Below are positions 1 through 8,687 of a DNA stretch of 8,687 nucleotides, in pieces. Within the stretch, counting starts at the first letter, position 1. Each line of letters opens with the position of its first letter. The notes beneath the pieces were generated by a model that made no database searches, was not told the DNA's origin, and worked only from the letters and a program-made list of their open reading frames with translations. Made by a program: the position numbers and the translations under genes. The DNA comes from a virus (lineage: Duplodnaviria; Heunggongvirae; Uroviricota; Caudoviricetes), in IMG/VR virus record IMGVR_UViG_2896595138_000004; one strand, 5' to 3'.

Positions 1-375
<375 letters not shown>

Positions 376-600
376 ATTTAACGCCTTACGCAGTTGCAGA
401 ATTTCAGATTCCAGTTCAGCCACCGTGCGGGAACCAGGAGTACCGAGCCCTTTTCTGGCGGCGGTAACCCATTGTCCTAAAGTGCCTTCAGGAAGGGATA
501 ATCGGGAAGCGCCTTCACTGATCGAAAGTTGATTTTCAAGAACCGTTCTGACAGCTTCGGCTTTGAACTCTTTAGAGTAACGTTGGGTTTTTCTGCTCAT
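376..600 (-). pseudogene. IS600-like orfA, truncated after about 75 codons by the IS911 insertion
   Basis: Product MSRKTQRYSKEFKAEAVRTVLENQLSISEGASRLSLPEGTLGQWVTAARKGLGTPGSRTVAELESEILQLRKALN ends at a stop codon supplied by the terminal TGA of the IS911 inverted repeat (373-375), i.e. the reading frame is cut by the inserted element. Confidence 0.6.
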
Positions 601-664
601 TATTAGCTCCTTCTGATGCCATTCTATTTCAGGAAGGAGTGTCCGTTAAACTCAGGCTACCTCA
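376..664 (-). mobile_element. IS600-like IS3-family element, left-end fragment interrupted by the IS911 insertion
   Basis: Reverse complement of the 664 end reads TGAGGTAGCCTGAGTTTAACGGACACTCCTTCC... (TG terminus), then a strong SD (AAGGAG, 6-nt spacer) and an orfA start at 600; the orfA product resembles IS600 OrfA. Lambda-T/H-like sequence resumes at 665. The 664 boundary is inferred from the TG terminus and where phage sequence resumes. Confidence 0.6.
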
Positions 665-766
665 GAGAACGGGATACCGGAGCGAACGGACGAAGAACTG
701 ATGCATCTTGGGGAAGGTATTTCCGGAGGTGTGCGTTATGGACCAGATAGCCAACCTGGTCATTGA
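665..766 (+). pseudogene. 3' remnant of tail assembly chaperone gene (lambda T-like), 5' part removed or displaced by the IS insertion
   Basis: Frame 2 is open from the IS boundary (665) to TGA at 764-766, reading ENGIPERTDEELMHLGEGISGGVRYGPDSQPGH, and overlaps the H start as the T stop overlaps H in lambda. Assignment to T rests on position and gene order only; I cannot verify the residues from memory. Confidence 0.3.
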
Positions 767-3700
767 TTTGGGGATTGATGCGGCAGAGTTTAAAAATGAA
801 ATTCCCCGTATCAAAAACCTTCTGAATGGTGCAGCCGGTGATGCAGAACGGTCTTCTGCCCGTATGCAGCGTTTTATGGAGCGTCAGACTCAGGCGGCCC
901 GGCAGACAATGCAGGCGGCTTCTTCGGCTGCAACAGCAGCATCAGCCCATGCGCAGACGGTGGAGAAGAATGCACGGGCTCATGAACGCATGGCCCGTGA
1001 GGTGGAACAAACCCGTCTGCGCGTGGATGCCCTGAATCAGAAAATGCGCGAGGAACAGGCGCAGGCCAGGGCACTGGCGGAGGCGCAGGATAAAGCGGCT
1101 GCCGCCTTTTATCGCCAGATTGACAGTGTGAAACAGGCCGGTGCGGGGCTTCAGGAATTACAGCGTATTCAGCAGCAGATCCGACAGGCCAGAAACAGTG
1201 GCGGGGTTGGTCAGCAGGATTATCTGGCGCTGATTTCGGAGATCACGGCGAAAACCCGTGCCCTGACGCAGGCAGAGGAACAGGCCACCCGGCAGAAAGC
1301 GGCGTTTATCCGCCAGCTTAAAGAGCAGGCAACCCGCCAGAATCTGTCGTCTTCTGAGTTGCTTCGCGCCAGGGCGGCTCAGCTGGGGGTAAGCAGTGCT
1401 GCAGAAGTGTATATCCGCAAAATGGAGCGGGCAGGAAAAGCCACACATTCGCTGGGGCTGAAAAGTGCGGCAGCCCGGCGGGAGCTGGGGGTGTTAATCA
1501 GTCAGATGGCGCGCGGCAATTTTGGTGCGCTGAGGGGAGCCGGGATAACGCTGGCTAACCGTGCCGGATGGACAGGCGCACTGATGTCGCCGAAAGGCAT
1601 GATGACTGGCGGCGTTATTGGCGGACTTGTCGCGGCGGTCCTGGGTCTGGGTAAAGCCTGGCATGACGGCCGGAAGGAGGGCGAGGAATTTAACCGTCAG
1701 CTGGCGCTGACGGGACATTATGCCGGTGTCACTGTCGGGCAGTTGTGGAAACTCAGCCGGGCCATATCCGGGAATGGTATCACGCAACATGCGGCAGCCG
1801 GTGCGCTGGCACAGGTGGTGGGCAGTGGGGCATTTCATGGAAACGATATTGGTATGGTGGCGAAAGCTGCCGCACAGATGGAGCGATCGGTTGGCCAGTC
1901 GGTCAGCGATACCATAAATCAGTTTAAGCGGCTGAAGGATGATCCTGTAAATGCCGCGAAGGCGCTGGACAATGCGCTGCATTTTTTGACTGCCACTCAG
2001 CTTGAGCAGATACGCGTCCTTGGGAGCAGGGGCGGTCCAGTGATGCGGCCCGGATCGCCATGTCTGCGCTGGCAGAGGAAACCGGTAAACGCACATCTGA
2101 TATTGATAATAATCTCAATGCGCTGGGTAGTACGCTGCAAACCTTGTCTGACTGGTGGAAGCAGTTCTGGGATGCGGCCATGAATATTGGTCGTGAAGAC
2201 TCGCTGGATGCGCAGATTGATGCGTTACAGGAAAAAATTCAGCGCGCGAAAAAATATCCGTGGACAAACGCCTCCACACAGGTGGAGTACGATCAGCAGC
2301 GTCTTAACGATCTTCAGGAGAAAAAACGCCGGAAGGATTTGCAGGATGCAAAAGCGCAGGCAGAACGGAATTACCAGGAGCAACAGAAACGCCGGAATGC
2401 TGAAAATGCCGCGCTGAACCGGATGAATGAAACGGAAGCTGCACGACATCAGCGGGAAATTGCGCGTATTAATGCCATGCAGTACGCCGACCAGGCTGTC
2501 AGGGATGCGGCGATACAGCGTGAAAATGAACGTTACGAAAAAGCCATTAAGAAAAATACACGGGCAACCCGTAATGATGAGGCCACCCGGTTATTGCTGC
2601 AGTACAGTCAGCAACAGGCACAGGTGGAAGGGCAGATTGCTGCTGCCAGACAGTCAGCAGGCATTGCCACTGAAAGGATGACTGAAGCGCATAAACAGCT
2701 TCTGGCCCTGCAGCAGCGCATCAGCGACCTGGACGGGAAAAAGCTGACGGCAGATGAAAAGAGTGTGCTGGCCCGTAAGAATGAGCTGATTCAGGCGCTG
2801 ACGCTGCTGGATGTGAAACAGCAGGAGCTGCAGAAACAGACAGCGCTTAACGACCTGAGAAAAAAAACGGTTCAGCTGACCAGCCAGCTGGCAGACAAAG
2901 AACGTGCACTGCGTGAGCAGCACAATCTGGATATTGCCACTGCAGGTATGGGGGATAAGCAGCGGCAGCGCTACCAGGCACAGTTGCGCATCCGGCAGGA
3001 ATACCGGCAACAGTTGCAACAGCTTGAGAATGACAGTCGCCAGAAAGGCACTTACGGGACGGAGGACTACCGGAGGGCTGAGGAGGTGCTGAAGGGGAGC
3101 CTGAAGCGACAACTGAATGAAAACAAACGCTACTGGCAGGAACTGGAAGTGGCGCAGGGCGACTGGAAAAACGGTGCCATGCGGGCGTTTCAGAATTTTA
3201 CGGCGGATGCGGATAATGCGGCGGGAACGGCAGAACAGATGTTTACAGTGGCATTCAGCAGTGCCGGTAATGCACTGGCGACATTCTGTACCACCGGTAA
3301 GCTGAATTTTAAATCCTTCACCTCTTCCCTGTTGTCAGATATGGCCAGAATTATGGCACAGATGGCCATGATGCAGGCGGTAAAGGGCGTCGGTTCTTTA
3401 TTCGGCTCCACGACTAATGCTGATGGCGGTGTTTACCAGTCTGCTGATTTGAGTCGCTACAGTGGCACGGTGGTTAACCGTCCGACGTTTTTTGCTTTTA
3501 CAAAAGGCGCGGGTGTGATGGGGAAGCGGGACCTGAAGCCATTCTGCCACTGCGTCGCGGTGCTGATGGTAAGCTGGGGGTTGTGGCGGATACTGGTGGT
3601 TCAGGCATGGTGATGTTTGCCCCGCAGTACAACATCGGGATCAATAACGACGGCACGAACGGGCAGATAGGTCCGGCAGCACTGAAGGTGGTTTATGACC

Positions 3701-3777
3701 TCGGGAAAAAAGCGGCCGCGGACTTTATGCAACAGCCGGCCCGTGATGGTGGCCGGTTAAGTGGAGCATACCGGTAA
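738..3777 (+). pseudogene. H: Tail tape measure protein (lambda gpH family), about 1013 codons if repaired; interrupted by two -1 frameshifts
   Basis: ATG at 738 preceded by GGAGG (725-729, 8-nt spacer). N-terminus MDQIANLVIDLGIDAAEFKNE aligns with lambda H MAEPVGDLVVDLSLDAARFDEQ; C-terminus ...NIGINNDGTNGQIGPAALKVVYD matches lambda H ...VINNDGTNGQIGPAALKAVYD. The frame passes 0 -> 2 at GGG 2022-2024 (RVLG|EQGRSSDAARIAMSALAEE) and 2 -> 1 at GGGG 3520-3523 (GVMG|EAGPEAILPLRRGADGKLGVVADTGGSG). Stop TAA at 3775-3777 overlaps the M start. Confidence 0.85.
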
Positions 3778-4105
3778 TGGAGACGTTTCGCTGGAAGGTG
3801 CGCCCGGATATGAATGTGGTATCAGAGCCAAAAGTGGTGGCAGTGAAGCTGGGTGATGGTTATGAACAGCGTCGCCCGGCGGGACTGAATAATCTGCTGT
3901 CGACTTACAGCGTGACGATACGTGTTCGTAAAGGTGAACACCCACCTTTAAAAGCCTTTCTGGAACGGCACGGTGGCGTCCGCGCATTTCAGTGGACGCC
4001 ACCTTATGACTGGAAACCGATCAGGGTGGTTTGTCGTAAATGGTCGGCAAACGTGGGGCGTTATGGGTGACTGTAACGGCCGATTTTGAACAGGTGGTGA
4101 ACTGA
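3777..4105 (+). pseudogene. M: Minor tail protein M (lambda gpM family), 109 codons if repaired; -1 frameshift 16 codons before the end
   Basis: METFRWKVRPDMNVVSEPKVVAVKLGDGYEQRRPAGLNNLLSTYSVTIRV... aligns with lambda M MKTFRWKVKPGMDVASVPSVRKVRFGDGYSQRAPAGL... Frame 0 stops at 4068-4070, but frame 2 from the GGGG run at 4055-4058 reads ALWVTVTADFEQVVN-stop (TGA 4103-4105), matching the lambda M C-terminus ...VEFSAEFEQVVN and restoring the TGATG overlap with L. Confidence 0.8.
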
Positions 4106-4803
4106 TGCAGGATATCCGGCAGGAAACACTGAATGAATGCACCTGTGCGGAGCAGTCAGCCCGGGTGGAGCTCTGGGAAATCGATCTGACAGAGGTCGGT
4201 GGTGAGCGTTATTTTTTCTGTAATGAGCAGAACGAAAAAGGTGAGCCGGTTACCTGGCAGGGGCGGCAGTATCAGGCATACCCCATTCAGGGGACGGGAT
4301 TTGAACTGAACGGCAAGGGCAGTGCTGCCCGTCCGATACTGACGGTCTCTAACCTGCACGGCATGGTCACCGGGATGGCGGAAGACCTGCAGAGTCTGGT
4401 CGGCGGAACGGTGGTCAGGCGTAAGGTTTACGCCCGTTTTCTGGATGCGGTGAACTTCGTCAACGGAAACAGTGACGCCGATCCGGAGCAGGAGGTGATC
4501 AGCCGCTGGCGCATCGAGCAGTGCAGCGAACTGAGCGCGGTCAGTGCCTCTTTTGTACTGTCCACGCCGACGGAAACGGACGGTGCTGTTTTTCCGGGGC
4601 GCATCATGCTGGCTAATACCTGCACCTGGACCTATCGCGGTGATGAGTGCGGTTATCACGGTCCGGCTGTCGCTGATGAATATGACCAGCCGACGTCCGA
4701 TATCACGAAGGATAAATGCAGCAAATGCCTGAGTGGTTGTAAGTTTCGCAATAACGTCGGCAACTTTGGCGGCTTCCTTTCCATTAACAAACTTTCGCAG
4801 TAA
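4105..4803 (+). CDS. L: Minor tail protein L (lambda gpL family), 232 aa, intact
   Basis: MQDIRQETLNECTCAEQSARVELWEIDLTEVGGERYFFCNEQNEKGEPVTWQGRQYQAYPIQGTGFELNGKG... is near-identical to lambda L as I recall it; same length as lambda L (232 aa); ATG overlaps the M stop (TGATG). Confidence 0.9.
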   Translation: MQDIRQETLNECTCAEQSARVELWEIDLTEVGGERYFFCNEQNEKGEPVTWQGRQYQAYPIQGTGFELNGKGSAARPILTVSNLHGMVTGMAEDLQSLVGGTVVRRKVYARFLDAVNFVNGNSDADPEQEVISRWRIEQCSELSAVSASFVLSTPTETDGAVFPGRIMLANTCTWTYRGDECGYHGPAVADEYDQPTSDITKDKCSKCLSGCKFRNNVGNFGGFLSINKLSQ

Positions 4804-4808
4804 ATCCC

Positions 4809-5552
4809 ATGACACAGACAGAATCAGCGATTCTGGCGCACGCCCGGCGATGTGCGCCAGCGGAGTTGTGCGGCTTCGTGGTGAGAACGCCGGAGGGGGA
4901 AAGATATTTTCCCTGCGTGAATATCTCCGGTGAGCCGGAGGCGTATTTCCGGATGTCGCCGGAGGACTGGCTGCGGGCAGAGATGCAGGGTGAGATTGTG
5001 GCGCTGGTCCACAGCCACCCCGGTGGTCTGCCCTGGCTGAGTGAGGCTGACAGGCGGCTGCAGGTGCAGAGCGATTTGCCTTGGTGGCTGGTCTGCCGGG
5101 GTGAGATTCATAAATTCCGCTGTGTGCCGCATCTTACCGGGCGGCGCTTTGAGCACGGGGTGACGGACTGTTACACGCTGTTCCGGGATGCTTATCATCT
5201 GGCGGGGATTGAGATGCCGGATTTTCATCGCGGGGATGACTGGTGGCGTCACGGTCAGAATCTCTATCTGGATAATCTGGAGGCCACAGGGCTGTATCAG
5301 GTGCCGTTGTCAGCGGCGCAGCCGGGCGATGTGCTGCTGTGCTGTTTTGGTTCATCGGTGCCGAATCATGCCGCCATTTACTGTGGTGACGGCGAGCTGC
5401 TGCACCATATTCCTGAACAACTGAGCAAACGAGAGAGGTATACCGACAAATGGCAGCGACGCACACACTCCCTCTGGCGTCACCGGGCATGGCACGCATC
5501 TGCCTTTACGGGGATTTGCAACGATTTGGCCGCCGCATCGACCTTCGTGTGA
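4809..5552 (+). CDS. K: Tail assembly protein K (lambda gpK family): N-terminal JAB/MPN (JAMM) domain plus C-terminal NlpC/P60-like domain, 247 aa, intact
   Basis: Uninterrupted 247-codon ORF starting 6 nt after the L stop. Contains a canonical JAMM motif H68-S-H70-x7-S78-x2-D81 (HSHPGGLPWLSEAD, nt 5010-5051) and a Cys-containing NlpC/P60-like segment (GVTDCYTLF). Overlaps I by 103 nt, as K and I do in lambda. Confidence 0.9.
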   Translation: MTQTESAILAHARRCAPAELCGFVVRTPEGERYFPCVNISGEPEAYFRMSPEDWLRAEMQGEIVALVHSHPGGLPWLSEADRRLQVQSDLPWWLVCRGEIHKFRCVPHLTGRRFEHGVTDCYTLFRDAYHLAGIEMPDFHRGDDWWRHGQNLYLDNLEATGLYQVPLSAAQPGDVLLCCFGSSVPNHAAIYCGDGELLHHIPEQLSKRERYTDKWQRRTHSLWRHRAWHASAFTGICNDLAAASTFV

Positions 5553-6088
5553 AAACGGGGCCGAAGCCATCCGGGCGCTGGCCACACAGCTCCCGGCGTT
5601 TCGTCAGAAACTGAATGACGGCTGGTATCAGGTGCGCATTGCCGGGCGTGATGCAGGTGAAACCGAATTATCTGCCCGTCTTAATGAGCCGCTGGCAAAT
5701 GGTGCAGTGATCCACATAGTACCGCGTCTGGTGGGAGCTAAAAGTGGCGGTGTGTTTCAGGCGGTGCTGGGGGCGGCTGTTATGGCGGTTGCTATATGGA
5801 TGCCGGGGTAGGAATTATGGCGAGTAATCTGCTGTTTTCTCTCGGTGCCAGTATGACGCTTGGCGGTGTTGCACAGATGCTGGCACCGAAAGCCAGAACT
5901 CCCGTACACAGACAACGGATAACGGTAAGCAGAACACATATTTCTCGTCACTGGATAACATGGTTGCCCAGGGCAATGTTCTGCCCGTTCTGTACGGTGA
6001 AATGCGCGTGGGGTCACGTGTGGTTTCTCAGGAGATCAGCACGGCAGACGAAGGGGATGGTGGTCAGGTTGTGGTGATTGGTCGCTGA
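5450..6088 (+). pseudogene. I: Tail assembly protein I (lambda gpI family; N-terminal ubiquitin-like domain ending in GG), about 213 codons if repaired; three -1 frameshifts
   Basis: MAATHTLPLASPGMARICLYGDLQRFGRRIDLRVKTG matches the lambda I N-terminus; the C-terminus ...TDNGKQNTYFSSLDNMVAQGNVLPVLYGEMRVGSRVVSQEISTADEGDGGQVVVIGR-stop (TGA 6086-6088) matches the lambda I C-terminus. The frame passes 2 -> 1 at GGGG 5557-5560, 1 -> 0 at GGGG 5805-5808 and 0 -> 2 at CCC 5901-5903. Confidence 0.8.
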
Positions 6089-6105
6089 TGCAAAATGTTT
6101 TATGT

Positions 6106-6136
6106 GAAACCGCCTGCGGGCGGTTTTGTCGTTTAT
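6106..6136 (+). terminator. Candidate intrinsic terminator / RNA hairpin in the I-J intergenic region
   Basis: GAAACCGCC (6106-6114), loop TGCG, GGCGGTTTT (6119-6127), then a T-rich tract TTTTGTCGTTT, placed 18 nt after the I stop and before the J ribosome-binding site (GAGGA 6144-6148). Function not demonstrable from sequence. Confidence 0.35.
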
Positions 6137-6148
6137 GGAGCGTGAGGA

Positions 6149-8687
6149 ATGGGTAAAGGCAGCAGTAAGGGGCATACCCCGCGCGAAGCGAAGGACAACC
6201 TGAAATCCACGCAGTTGCTGAGTGTGATTGATGCCATCAGCGAAGGGCCGGTTGAAGGTCCGGTGGATGGATTAAAAAGCGTGCTGCTGAACGGTACGCC
6301 GGTGCTGGACAGCGAGGGGAAGACAAACTTTTCCGGTGTTACGGTGGTGTTCCGTGCAGGTGAGCAGGAGCAGACACCGCCGGAGGGTTTTGAATCCTCC
6401 GGCTCCGAGACGGTGCTGGGTACGGAAGTGAAATATGACACGCCGATCACCCGGACCATCACGTCGGCAAACATCGACCGTCTGCGCCTGACCTTCGGTG
6501 TGCAGGCACTGGTGGAAACCACCTCAAAGGGTGACCGGAATCCGTCGGAAGTCCGCCTGCTGGTTCAGATACAGCGTAACGGTGGCTGGGTGACGGAAAA
6601 AGACATCACCATTAAGGGCAAAACCACTTCGCAGTATCTGGCCTCGGTGGTGGTGGGTAACCTGCCGCCGCGCCCGTTTAATATCCGGATGCGCAGGATG
6701 ACACCGGACAGCACCACAGACCAGCTGCAGAACAAAACGCTCTGGTCGTCGTACACCGAAATCATCGATGTGAAACAGTGCTACCCGAACACGGCACTGG
6801 TCGGCGTACAGGTGGATTCGGAGCAGTTCGGCAGCCAGCAGGTGAGCCGTAATTATCATCTGCGCGGGCGTATTCTGCAGGTGCCGTCGAACTATAACCC
6901 GCAGACGCGGCAATACAGCGGTATCTGGGACGGAACGTTTAAGCCAGCATACAGCAATAACATGGCCTGGTGTCTGTGGGATATGCTGACCCATCCGCGC
7001 TACGGCATGGGGAAACGTCTTGGTGCGGCAGATGTGGACAAATGGGCGCTGTATGTCATCGGCCAGTACTGCGACCAGTCAGTGCCGGACGGATTTGGCG
7101 GCACGGAGCCGCGCATCACCTGTAACGCTTACCTGACCACACAGCGTAAGGCGTGGGATGTTCTCAGTGATTTCTGCTCGGCGATGCGCTGTATGCCGGT
7201 ATGGAACGGACAGATGCTGACGTTCGTGCAGGACCGACCGTCGGATAAGGTGTGGACCTATAACCGCAGTAATGTGGTGATGCCGGATGATGGCGCGCCG
7301 TTCCGCTACAGCTTCAGCGCCCTGAAGGACCGCCATAATGCCGTTGAGGTGAACTGGATTGACCCGGATAACGGCTGGGAGACGGCGACAGAGCTTGTTG
7401 AAGATACGCAGGCCATTGCCCGTTACGGTCGTAATGTCACGAAGATGGATGCCTTTGGCTGTACCAGCCGGGGCAGGCACACCGAGCCGGGCTGTGGCTG
7501 ATTAAAACGGAACTGCTGGAAACGCAGACCGTGGACTTCAGCGTGGGCGCAGAAGGGCTTCGCCATGTACCGGGTGATGTCATTGAAATCTGCGATGATG
7601 ATTATGCCGGTATCAGCACCGGTGGTCGCGTACTGGCGGTGAACAGCCAGACCCGGACGCTGACGCTCGACCGTGAAATCACGCTGCCGTCCTCCGGTAC
7701 CACGCTGATAAGCCTGGTTGACGGAAGTGGCAATCCGGTCAGCGTGGAGGTCCAGTCCGTCACCGACGGCGTGAAGGTGAAAGTGAGCCGGGTTCCTGAC
7801 GGCGTTGCCGGATACAGCGTGTGGGGGCTGAAGCTGCCGACGCTGCGTCAGCGCCTGTTCCGCTGCGTGAGTATCCGTGAGAACGATGACGGCACATATG
7901 CCATCACCGCCGTGCAGCATGTGCCGGAAAAAGAGGCCATTGTGGATAACGGGGCACACTTTGACAGTGACCGGCGCGGCACGGTGAATGGTGTCACGCC
8001 GCCAGCAGTGCAGCACCTGACCGCAGAAGTCATCGCAGGCAGCGGGGAATATCAGGTGCTGGCGCGCTGGGACACGCCGAAGGTGGTGAAGGGGGTGAGC
8101 TTCCTGCTTCGCCTGACCGTGGCAGCGGATGACGGCAGTGAGCGGCTGGTCAGCACAGCCCGGACGACGGAAACCACATATCGTTTCACGCAGCTTGCGT
8201 TGGGGCGTTATACGCTGACAGTCCGGGCGGTAAATGCCCGGGGCAGCAGGGCGATCCGGTGTCGGTATCGTTCCGGATTGCGGCACCGGCAGCGCCTGTC
8301 ACTATTGAACTGATACCGGGGTATTTTCAGATAACGGCGGTCCCGAAACTGGCTGTATATGACCCGACGGTGCAGTTTGAGTTCTGGTTTTCGGAAAAGC
8401 GGATTGCGGATATCAGGCAGGTTGAAACCAGCGCCCGCTATCTTGGCACGGCGCTGTACTGGATAGCCGCCAGTATCAATATCAGGCCGGGCCATGATTA
8501 TTATTTTTACGTTCGCAGTGTGAACACCGTTGGCAAATCGGCATTTGTGGAGACCATCGGTCGGGCGAGCGATGATGCGGAAGGTTATCTGAATTTTTAT
8601 AAAGGGTTGATCAATAAAACGCACCTCGGCAAGGAACTGCTGGAAAAAGTCGAGCTGACGGAAGATAACGCCAGCAGACTGGAGTAA
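6149..8687 (+). pseudogene. J: Host specificity protein J (central tail fibre, lambda gpJ family), N-terminal about 846 codons; two -1 frameshifts; reading frame reaches TAA at the window end
   Basis: MGKGSSKGHTPREAKDNLKSTQLLSVIDAISEGPVEGPVDGLKSVLLNGTPVLD... is near-identical to the lambda J N-terminus, with high similarity throughout. The frame passes 2 -> 1 at GGGG 7470-7473 (TSRG|QAHRAGLWLIKTELLETQ) and 1 -> 0 at GGGG 8240-8243 (AVNARG|[15 protein letters not shown]). In-frame TAA at 8685-8687 follows ...[10 protein letters not shown], where lambda J continues for roughly 285 more residues. Confidence 0.9.

Follow-up and report, generated by a model that had tools for sequence, protein, structure and literature searches.

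Organization of the Tail Gene Remnant

The window, by which we mean the whole stretch of 8,687 nt analyzed here, was taken from one chromosome, CP026845.1 (GCA_002950375.1), which is a single contig and in which lpxL and opgH flank the locus. It contains a remnant of a lambda-like siphovirus tail module in which the genes H-M-L-K-I-J are collinear with those of the known system and have the same sizes and Pfam domains (TMP_2/Tape_meas_lam_C, Phage_min_tail, Phage_tail_L, JAB+NLPC_P60, Lambda_tail_I, and GpJ FNIII/Phage-tail_3/Ig_J, respectively; table 1). Gene assignments follow the annotation of L002, which together with L001 is one of the best Escherichia coli relatives used for pairwise alignment (97.4% and 97.6%); the phage sequence L003 (91.7%) was aligned as well. 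The closest phages are PhiR47_1, Tritos, mEp460, and cdtI, at ~91% nucleotide identity. At least 15 other assemblies have this prophage remnant in the identical chromosomal position.

The surviving genes, H-M-L-K-I-J', are bounded by nested IS3-family elements on the left and by IS4 on the right. The outermost IS3-family element, which we take to be IS911-like, runs on leftwards beyond the window, and its 100-aa orfA protein occurs in identical form in 2602 collection blocks; it splits a second IS3-family element that is presumably IS600-like. Together they occupy window 1–663, in place of all that would precede the last ~75 bp of T. The lambda-like tail homology starts abruptly at 664, inside T, where the prophage is genuinely truncated on its left side. 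At the other end, J is cut at codon 846 by IS4, whose terminal TAA (8685–8687) serves as the stop codon, whereas J is ~1130–1165 aa long in L001 and L002. Sister strains have an additional IS between I and J.

Compared with a complete lambda-like module, the remnant thus lacks the head genes, Z/U/V/G, lom, and stf, as well as all but the end of T, and its J lacks the C-terminal ~290 residues, that is, the receptor-binding end. The upstream genes Z/U/V/G/T and a full-length J, which a complete tail-assembling module would comprise, are not found here. The first-pass annotation supposed that the tail module is probably intact if its frameshifts are artefacts, but this does not hold: because the IS elements cut T and truncate J, the remnant cannot build tails and is nonfunctional as a tail module even with all eight frameshift sites repaired.

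Table 1. Features of the Window, with Coordinates, Strand, and Supporting Evidence or Remarks
Feature	Position	Strand	Evidence or remarks
IS3-family orfA (100-aa CDS, 1–303)	1–339	−	Pfam HTH_Tnp_1, followed by rve ORF
Truncated orfA (75 aa) of second IS3-family element	373–600	−	HTH_Tnp_1; split by first IS
T, tail assembly gene, last ~75 bp	664–737	+	Alignments; L002 annotation
H, tape measure gene	738–3777	+	Split by two apparently spurious 1-base deletions; 1013 aa repaired (2 aa differences from L006)
M, minor tail protein	3777–4105	+	109 aa repaired, then identical to L006 M
L, intact, 232 aa	4105–4803	+	ORF; exact protein in other assemblies
K, intact, 247 aa, JAB and NlpC/P60 domains	4809–5552	+	ORF; exact protein elsewhere
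I, tail assembly protein	5489–6088	+	Alternative starts 5450, 5549; three apparently spurious deletions; 200/213 aa repaired
J, tail tip/host specificity protein	6149–8687	+	IS4-truncated; two apparently spurious deletions besides; 846 aa repaired
Site 1, gene H	2022–2024	+	GGG in window; GGGG in 19/19 other covering loci
Site 2, gene H	3520–3523	+	GGGG in window; GGGGG in all other loci
Site 3, gene M	4055–4058	+	GGGG in window; GGGGG elsewhere; 97-aa product on CP026845.1 only
Site 4, gene I	5557–5560	+	GGGG in window; GGGGG elsewhere
Site 5, gene I	5805–5808	+	GGGG in window; GGGGG elsewhere
Site 6, gene I	5901–5903	+	CCC in window; CCCC elsewhere
Site 7, gene J	7470–7473	+	GGGG in window; GGGGG elsewhere, GGGGA in L002 and L016
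Site 8, gene J	8240–8243	+	GGGG in window; GGGGG elsewhere

Eight Single-Base Losses in G and C Runs

In pairwise alignments with L001, L002, and L003, the only net indels in the window are eight 1-base deletions, located after positions 2021, 3519, 4054, 5556, 5804, 5900, ~7469, and 8239. Six of these shorten G5 to G4, one G4 to G3, and one C4 to C3. The first-pass annotation had described eight frameshifts in short homopolymers of the tail genes, and the alignments with relatives confirm the sites and their run lengths, as does the L002 annotation the distribution over genes (H, two; M, one; I, three; J, two). It had also predicted that one added base per site would make H, M, I, and J continuous, which is the case; the 1013 aa of the repaired H is also the length of H in L006–L013. 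L and K are intact, as had been claimed, and their exact sequences are found in other assemblies (L on 10 contigs and K on 15). Intact GGGGG runs are likewise present elsewhere in the window, at 1385, 1487, 3576, and 5769.

Runs of at least four G or C make up only ~1.9% of the bases in the corrected 21.4-kb source stretch. Since all eight deletions fall within such runs, an outcome with a chance probability of ~1e-14, the pattern is not due to chance. In the same source stretch the collapsed G/C runs comprise 3/68 of those of length 4, 9/24 of length 5, and 1/2 of length 6, whereas none of 209 A/T runs of at least four, an A8 among them, has collapsed (Fisher p ~1e-7), although the genome has a GC content of ~50%. 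CGGGGG contexts are collapsed in six of six cases and other runs in 4 of 20.

Comparison with Related Assemblies

The run lengths were compared with those in related prophages, as the first-pass annotation had proposed, and at every covered site the other assemblies carry the longer run while the window is one base short. Closely related loci make this especially clear. L006, L015, and L009 each differ from the window by three SNPs and exactly eight gaps, and L010 differs by one SNP and by six gaps within its range; at the sites covered, none of the eight deletions is shared with these near-identical relatives. In agreement with this, the truncated proteins of 450, 97, 260, and 481 aa have exact matches in CP026845.1 only, the 450-aa product resulting from site 7 and the 260-aa product from site 8. 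A J fragment of 450 aa also occurs in L007, in which an A located two bases past an intact G5 has been lost. We considered whether L007 shares the loss at site 7 and rejected this, as its G5 is intact and the event 2 nt away is a separate one.

At this locus, 12.7 kb of the neighboring accession, CP026846.1 (L016), are free of G/C-run collapse, and thus the putative artefact is not uniform across the accession series. L016 does have one private single-base loss in I that does not lie in a homopolymer. Furthermore, a 5-bp AGGCG duplication in H is common to two independent assemblies, L016 and L018, and represents real decay in sister lineages. IS-driven decay is typical of Shigella/EIEC chromosomes, and the nested IS3-family elements and the IS4 at the boundaries of the remnant conform to it. 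The real decay seen here takes the form of IS insertions and of a 5-bp duplication rather than of single-base losses in G/C runs.

The Same Error Class across the Chromosome

Across the 21.35-kb source stretch, 13 of 13 differences are single-base losses. Outside the prophage, comparison with near-identical strains revealed a C5-to-C4 and a C4-to-C3 loss in the IS4 transposase and a C5-to-C4 loss downstream of lpxL. In opgG and clsC, losses of one base (C5 to C4 and C6 to C5, respectively) are the sole indels in 7.4 kb relative to E. coli. Approximately 12 further single-base losses, with no clean single-base gains, were found in 38.6 kb from four other chromosomal places, where they break sstT, proA, ydiJ, ydiN, ydiB, ydiF, and yfaV. 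In total, CP026845.1 has ~25 single-base losses and no clean gains in ~60 kb. The first-pass annotation had proposed to check other genes of the assembly for excess homopolymer frameshifts, and such breaks are indeed present, opgG, clsC, and the IS4 transposase being examples. Because the backbone-gene indels were scored against E. coli genomes that are 98–99% identical rather than against the same strain, real pseudogene mutations of Shigella may account for a few. The density of losses is ~1 per kb in the window, ~0.3 per kb in the other sampled regions, and ~0.4 per kb over the 60 kb.

Origin of the Frameshifts

The deletions are private to CP026845.1, and the same error class extends across the assembly. 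On the basis of these sequence comparisons, the eight frameshifts are almost certainly consensus errors of a single, probably long-read-only assembly, and the locus is, separately, an IS-bounded nonfunctional remnant. The base or consensus caller would have under-called short G or C runs systematically, by one base each, and H, M, I, and what is left of J would be in frame in the actual DNA. The first-pass annotation had offered homopolymer under-calling and slipped-strand decay without ranking them; the former is strongly supported, given that the losses are private, assembly-wide, and specific to G/C runs, and the latter is at odds with the absence of all eight losses from near-identical strains and with the involvement of housekeeping genes.

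It could nevertheless be argued that all eight are pseudogenizing slippage events in a neutral cryptic prophage. Homopolymers are natural hotspots of slippage, the locus is truly defunct as a result of IS truncation, such that selection would not oppose its decay, and the AGGCG duplication shared by L016 and L018 attests to real decay in sister lineages. We consider this very improbable, however, as strains only one to three SNPs distant have none of the eight losses and the truncated products are confined to one assembly. The spectrum would also be unnatural, with an indel:SNP ratio of 8:3, exclusively 1-base losses in G/C runs, and A/T runs entirely spared. Moreover, housekeeping genes are broken in the same manner throughout the chromosome at ~0.3–0.6 losses per kb, which extrapolates to ~2000 frameshifts per genome and would not be viable. 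Also very improbable is a mixture in which artefacts at most sites are joined by one or a few real losses in the stock of this historical isolate, for example in a subpopulation or following laboratory passage with defective mismatch repair. The independent loss in L007, 2 nt from site 7, lends this some plausibility, since the surroundings of this run of G may be either fragile or error-prone on more than one platform, yet none of the eight sites recurs in another assembly. A mismatch-repair defect would be expected to yield many transitions and indels in A/T runs, neither of which is seen; a mutator of this kind was therefore rejected, there being few SNPs and untouched A/T runs. That some of the eight losses are real in this historical strain has only a very slight probability; if so, they would point to an unusual deletion process specific to G/C tracts, for instance through a defective polymerase or repair system, that acts genome-wide and does not raise substitutions to a matching degree.

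Regulation of tail gene expression by programmed ribosomal frameshifting or phase variation can be dismissed, since no relative is out of frame at any of the eight sites and the frameshifted form is thus not conserved. A single programmed −1 frameshift is indeed used by lambda-like tail modules, in G/GT, but that region is absent here as the prophage is cut inside T. Known phase-variable tracts, for their part, are far longer than G4.

Implications for the CP026845.1 Assembly

Consensus errors of this kind have precedents. Assemblies made from PacBio RS II data only have systematic single-base deletions in G/C homopolymers that truncate proteins despite high coverage (ARAMIS, PMC8574707). The losses in CP026845.1 resemble these in that they are exclusively deletions, occur in short G/C runs, affect a subset of such runs, and truncate proteins; a further resemblance is that short-read assemblies from the lineage lack them. 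Their density is, however, far higher than that of the E. coli PacBio assembly in ARAMIS, which had 37 indels per genome (PMC8574707). Passages of a later paper ascribe "numerous indels in the homopolymers" to the Shigella assemblies of Kim et al. 2018 (PMC8795385), and the dataset is described there as having been generated without short-read editing. The accessions ascribed to Kim et al. run from CP026768 to CP026878 and so bracket CP026845, and the accession was not found in the supplements of two papers citing Kim et al. 2018. CP026845.1 is very probably one of these unpolished PacBio Shigella genomes, with both platform and membership deduced from the bracketing of accessions.

The IS-bounded remnant is real but ordinary biology. 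Our findings have little biological significance, and their practical value is that of a warning about data quality. Spurious frameshifts in CP026845.1 number roughly in the hundreds to thousands, and other unpolished long-read Shigella reference genomes of the same deposit are probably affected likewise. Spurious frameshifts inflate the pseudogene counts that are much discussed in relation to genome reduction in Shigella, disrupt cgMLST alleles, and leave protein databases with split genes; polishing is advisable before CP026845.1 is used for analyses of pseudogenes or prophage integrity. Elsewhere in this chromosome there is also a second class of error, in which the base directly after a GGG run is lost.

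Single-base losses in the tail genes

The tail module is 97.6% identical to a prophage of E. coli RMDEC465 and 97.4% identical to one of FDAARGOS_944, with a nucleotide identity of about 91% to the phages PhiR47_1, Tritos, mEp460 and cdtI. Pairwise alignment to three references showed that the net length differences of the window consist of eight one-base deletions only, at exactly the positions where the first-pass annotation had placed −1 frameshifts; according to the FDAARGOS_944 annotation, H and J have two each, M has one, and I has three. All eight shorten runs of G or C, with G5 reduced to G4 six times, G4 to G3 once, and C4 to C3 once, and because G/C runs of 4 or more make up only about 1.9% of the sequence, eight deletions out of eight in such runs is far beyond chance. 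One base added per site restores continuous frames, as had been claimed, of 1013 (H), 109 (M), 200/213 (I), and 846 aa (J), and L and K, between the broken genes, are indeed intact, with exact matches in other assemblies. The earlier finding is thus confirmed as an observation. As to its cause, we are nearly certain that the frameshifts are a sequencing or assembly artefact, of a sort already known, superimposed on an ordinary IS-truncated prophage remnant.

Features of the window and of the surrounding source chromosome (L004, stretch around the window; L030, L031, and L033, stretches outside it)
Feature	Position	Remarks
Nested IS3-family orfA pieces (two)	1-663	minus strand; element with orfA 1-303 inserted in orfA 373-600
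Lambda-like tail module	664-8687	H (tape measure)-M-L-K-I-J
Shortened runs, H	2022-2024, 3520-3523	GGG, GGGG
Shortened run, M	4055-4058	GGGG
Shortened runs, I	5557-5560, 5805-5808, 5901-5903	GGGG, GGGG, CCC
Shortened runs, J	7470-7473, 8240-8243	GGGG, GGGG
Collapsed CGGGGG (G strand)	5557, 5805, 7470, 8240; L004 13067, 16948	
IS4 insertion in J	8685-8687; L004 12540 onward	
C5 to C4	downstream of lpxL	vs strains with 0-2 mismatches
C5 to C4 and C4 to C3	IS4 transposase	448 aa split into 171 + 278; vs strains with 0-2 mismatches
C5 to C4; C6 to C5	opgG; clsC	sole indels in 7.4 kb vs E. coli ATCC 8739
GGG[T]-class and run-adjacent losses	L030 9131; L031 12772; L033 5665, 8461	
G/C runs of 4, 5, and 6	21.35-kb source stretch	collapsed 3/68, 9/24, and 1/2
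A/T runs of 4 or more, A8 included	21.35-kb source stretch	collapsed 0/209

The same remnant in independent assemblies

An exact-sequence look-up with the 450-aa J fragment traced the window to one contig, the 4.93-Mb chromosome CP026845.1 of GCA_002950375.1. The intact L and K proteins, used as queries, recovered the same remnant from at least 15 other assemblies, at a common site and in the order lpxL / IS / H-M-L-K-I-J′ / IS4 / opgH. The comparison of run lengths with related prophages that the first-pass annotation had proposed gave a uniform answer, in that every locus covering a given site has the longer run. Alignment of the window with three of these loci (L006, L015, and L009) leaves 3 SNPs and exactly the eight gaps, and with another (L010) 1 SNP and the six of those gaps that L010 spans. 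In these assemblies the genes are called with lengths of 1013 aa for H, 109 aa for M, and about 846 aa for J. By exact-sequence look-ups, CP026845.1 is the only record with any of the 450-, 97-, 260-, and 481-aa truncated products; the M fragment is the sharpest test of this uniqueness, since the repaired M is identical to that of relatives.

Other small differences were seen among these loci. Window position 3737 is C, against A in each of the four close relatives compared (L006, L009, L010, and L012), reflecting either a private strain SNP or an assembly substitution error. In AFGE01000042.1 (L007 10641, gene J), an A is missing two bases past the intact G5 equivalent to the window's site at 7470; this distinct event, real or an error, likewise yields a 450-aa J fragment. 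CP026846.1 (L016 6827, gene I) has a private, non-homopolymer loss, gtg[C]gca, which splits I into 53 + 140 aa; as the C is present in L014, L018, L006, and the window, the loss may be one more assembly error, here in a record with a neighbouring accession. In RMDEC465 (L001), the closest E. coli relative, RefSeq has H (3075-6116) as a pseudogene that contains an internal stop and J (8492-11889) as frameshifted, so that annotated tail-gene defects, real or not, extend to complete E. coli genomes.

Run collapse elsewhere in the source chromosome

The distribution and context of the losses argue for the artefact and against slipped-strand decay of the prophage. The 21.35 kb around the window hold five further single-base losses, all in C runs, and those in the IS4 transposase, opgG, and clsC are homopolymer frameshifts in other genes, of the kind that the first-pass annotation had asked about. 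Four more places in the chromosome were reached via the window's IS orfA, and their backbone (38.6 kb) was compared with E. coli genomes. It carries about a dozen more single-base losses, including three G6/C6-to-5 collapses, five T losses after GGG, and a few others, which strike sstT, proA, ydiJ, ydiN, ydiB (twice), ydiF, and yfaV (twice); relative to those genomes, this backbone shows no clean gain of a single base. A few of the backbone indels may be real, since they were scored against E. coli genomes of other strains, 98-99% identical. In all, some 25 losses were counted over roughly 60 kb; scaled up, this would put the frameshifts of one genome on the order of 2000, a load that is biologically implausible as real mutation. 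The window carries about 1 loss per kb, more than the other regions sampled, which have about 0.3. At the same locus, no G/C-run collapse is present in the adjacent-accession assembly CP026846.1.

Collapse is confined to G/C runs within the 21.35-kb stretch (Fisher p ~1e-7) and varies with the preceding base: 6/6 CGGGGG runs collapsed, compared with 4/20 of the others (A or T before), and four gctGGGGG runs were kept. The under-calling is strongly dependent on sequence context, and so deterministic a pattern fits caller bias and not random mutation. Systematic single-base G/C homopolymer deletions are described for PacBio RS II-only assemblies, where they truncate proteins even at >300x coverage (ARAMIS; PMC8574707). 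For their cgMLST analysis, Yassine et al. 2022 (PMC8795385) left out the closed Shigella genomes that Kim et al. 2018 had obtained with PacBio, which they describe as having many homopolymer indels and no short-read editing. Other papers attribute accessions CP026768 to CP026878 to Kim et al., and because this span brackets CP026845, we infer that CP026845.1 belongs to that dataset and platform.

The source assembly also shows a second error class, the loss of T directly after GGG, as well as single losses beside other runs, none of which is a simple homopolymer collapse.

Decay of the remnant

The prophage is nonetheless a true remnant. Its homology starts at 664, inside gene T and directly past the nested IS elements; of T only the last ~75 bp are left, and these elements replace everything before them. 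We take the inserted element to be IS911-like and its host presumably to be IS600-like. At the other end, J is cut at codon 846 by IS4, whose terminus (TAATGCCGATCAG...) supplies the stop codon TAA with its first three bases, whereas in RMDEC465 J reads on past this point.

Reproducible, real decay at the remnant locus is exemplified by a 5-bp tandem duplication (AGGCG AGGCG) in H that shifts the frame and leaves 883 + 86 aa (L016 ~4560 and L018 ~3100). Since two independent assemblies, CP026846.1 and LPTQ01000156.1, have it, this is a real pseudogenising mutation of a sister lineage. Three loci from sister strains with the same remnant (L007, L008, and L017) carry an extra IS3-family element between I and J, absent from the window, with a 100-aa orfA and a 237-272-aa orfB.
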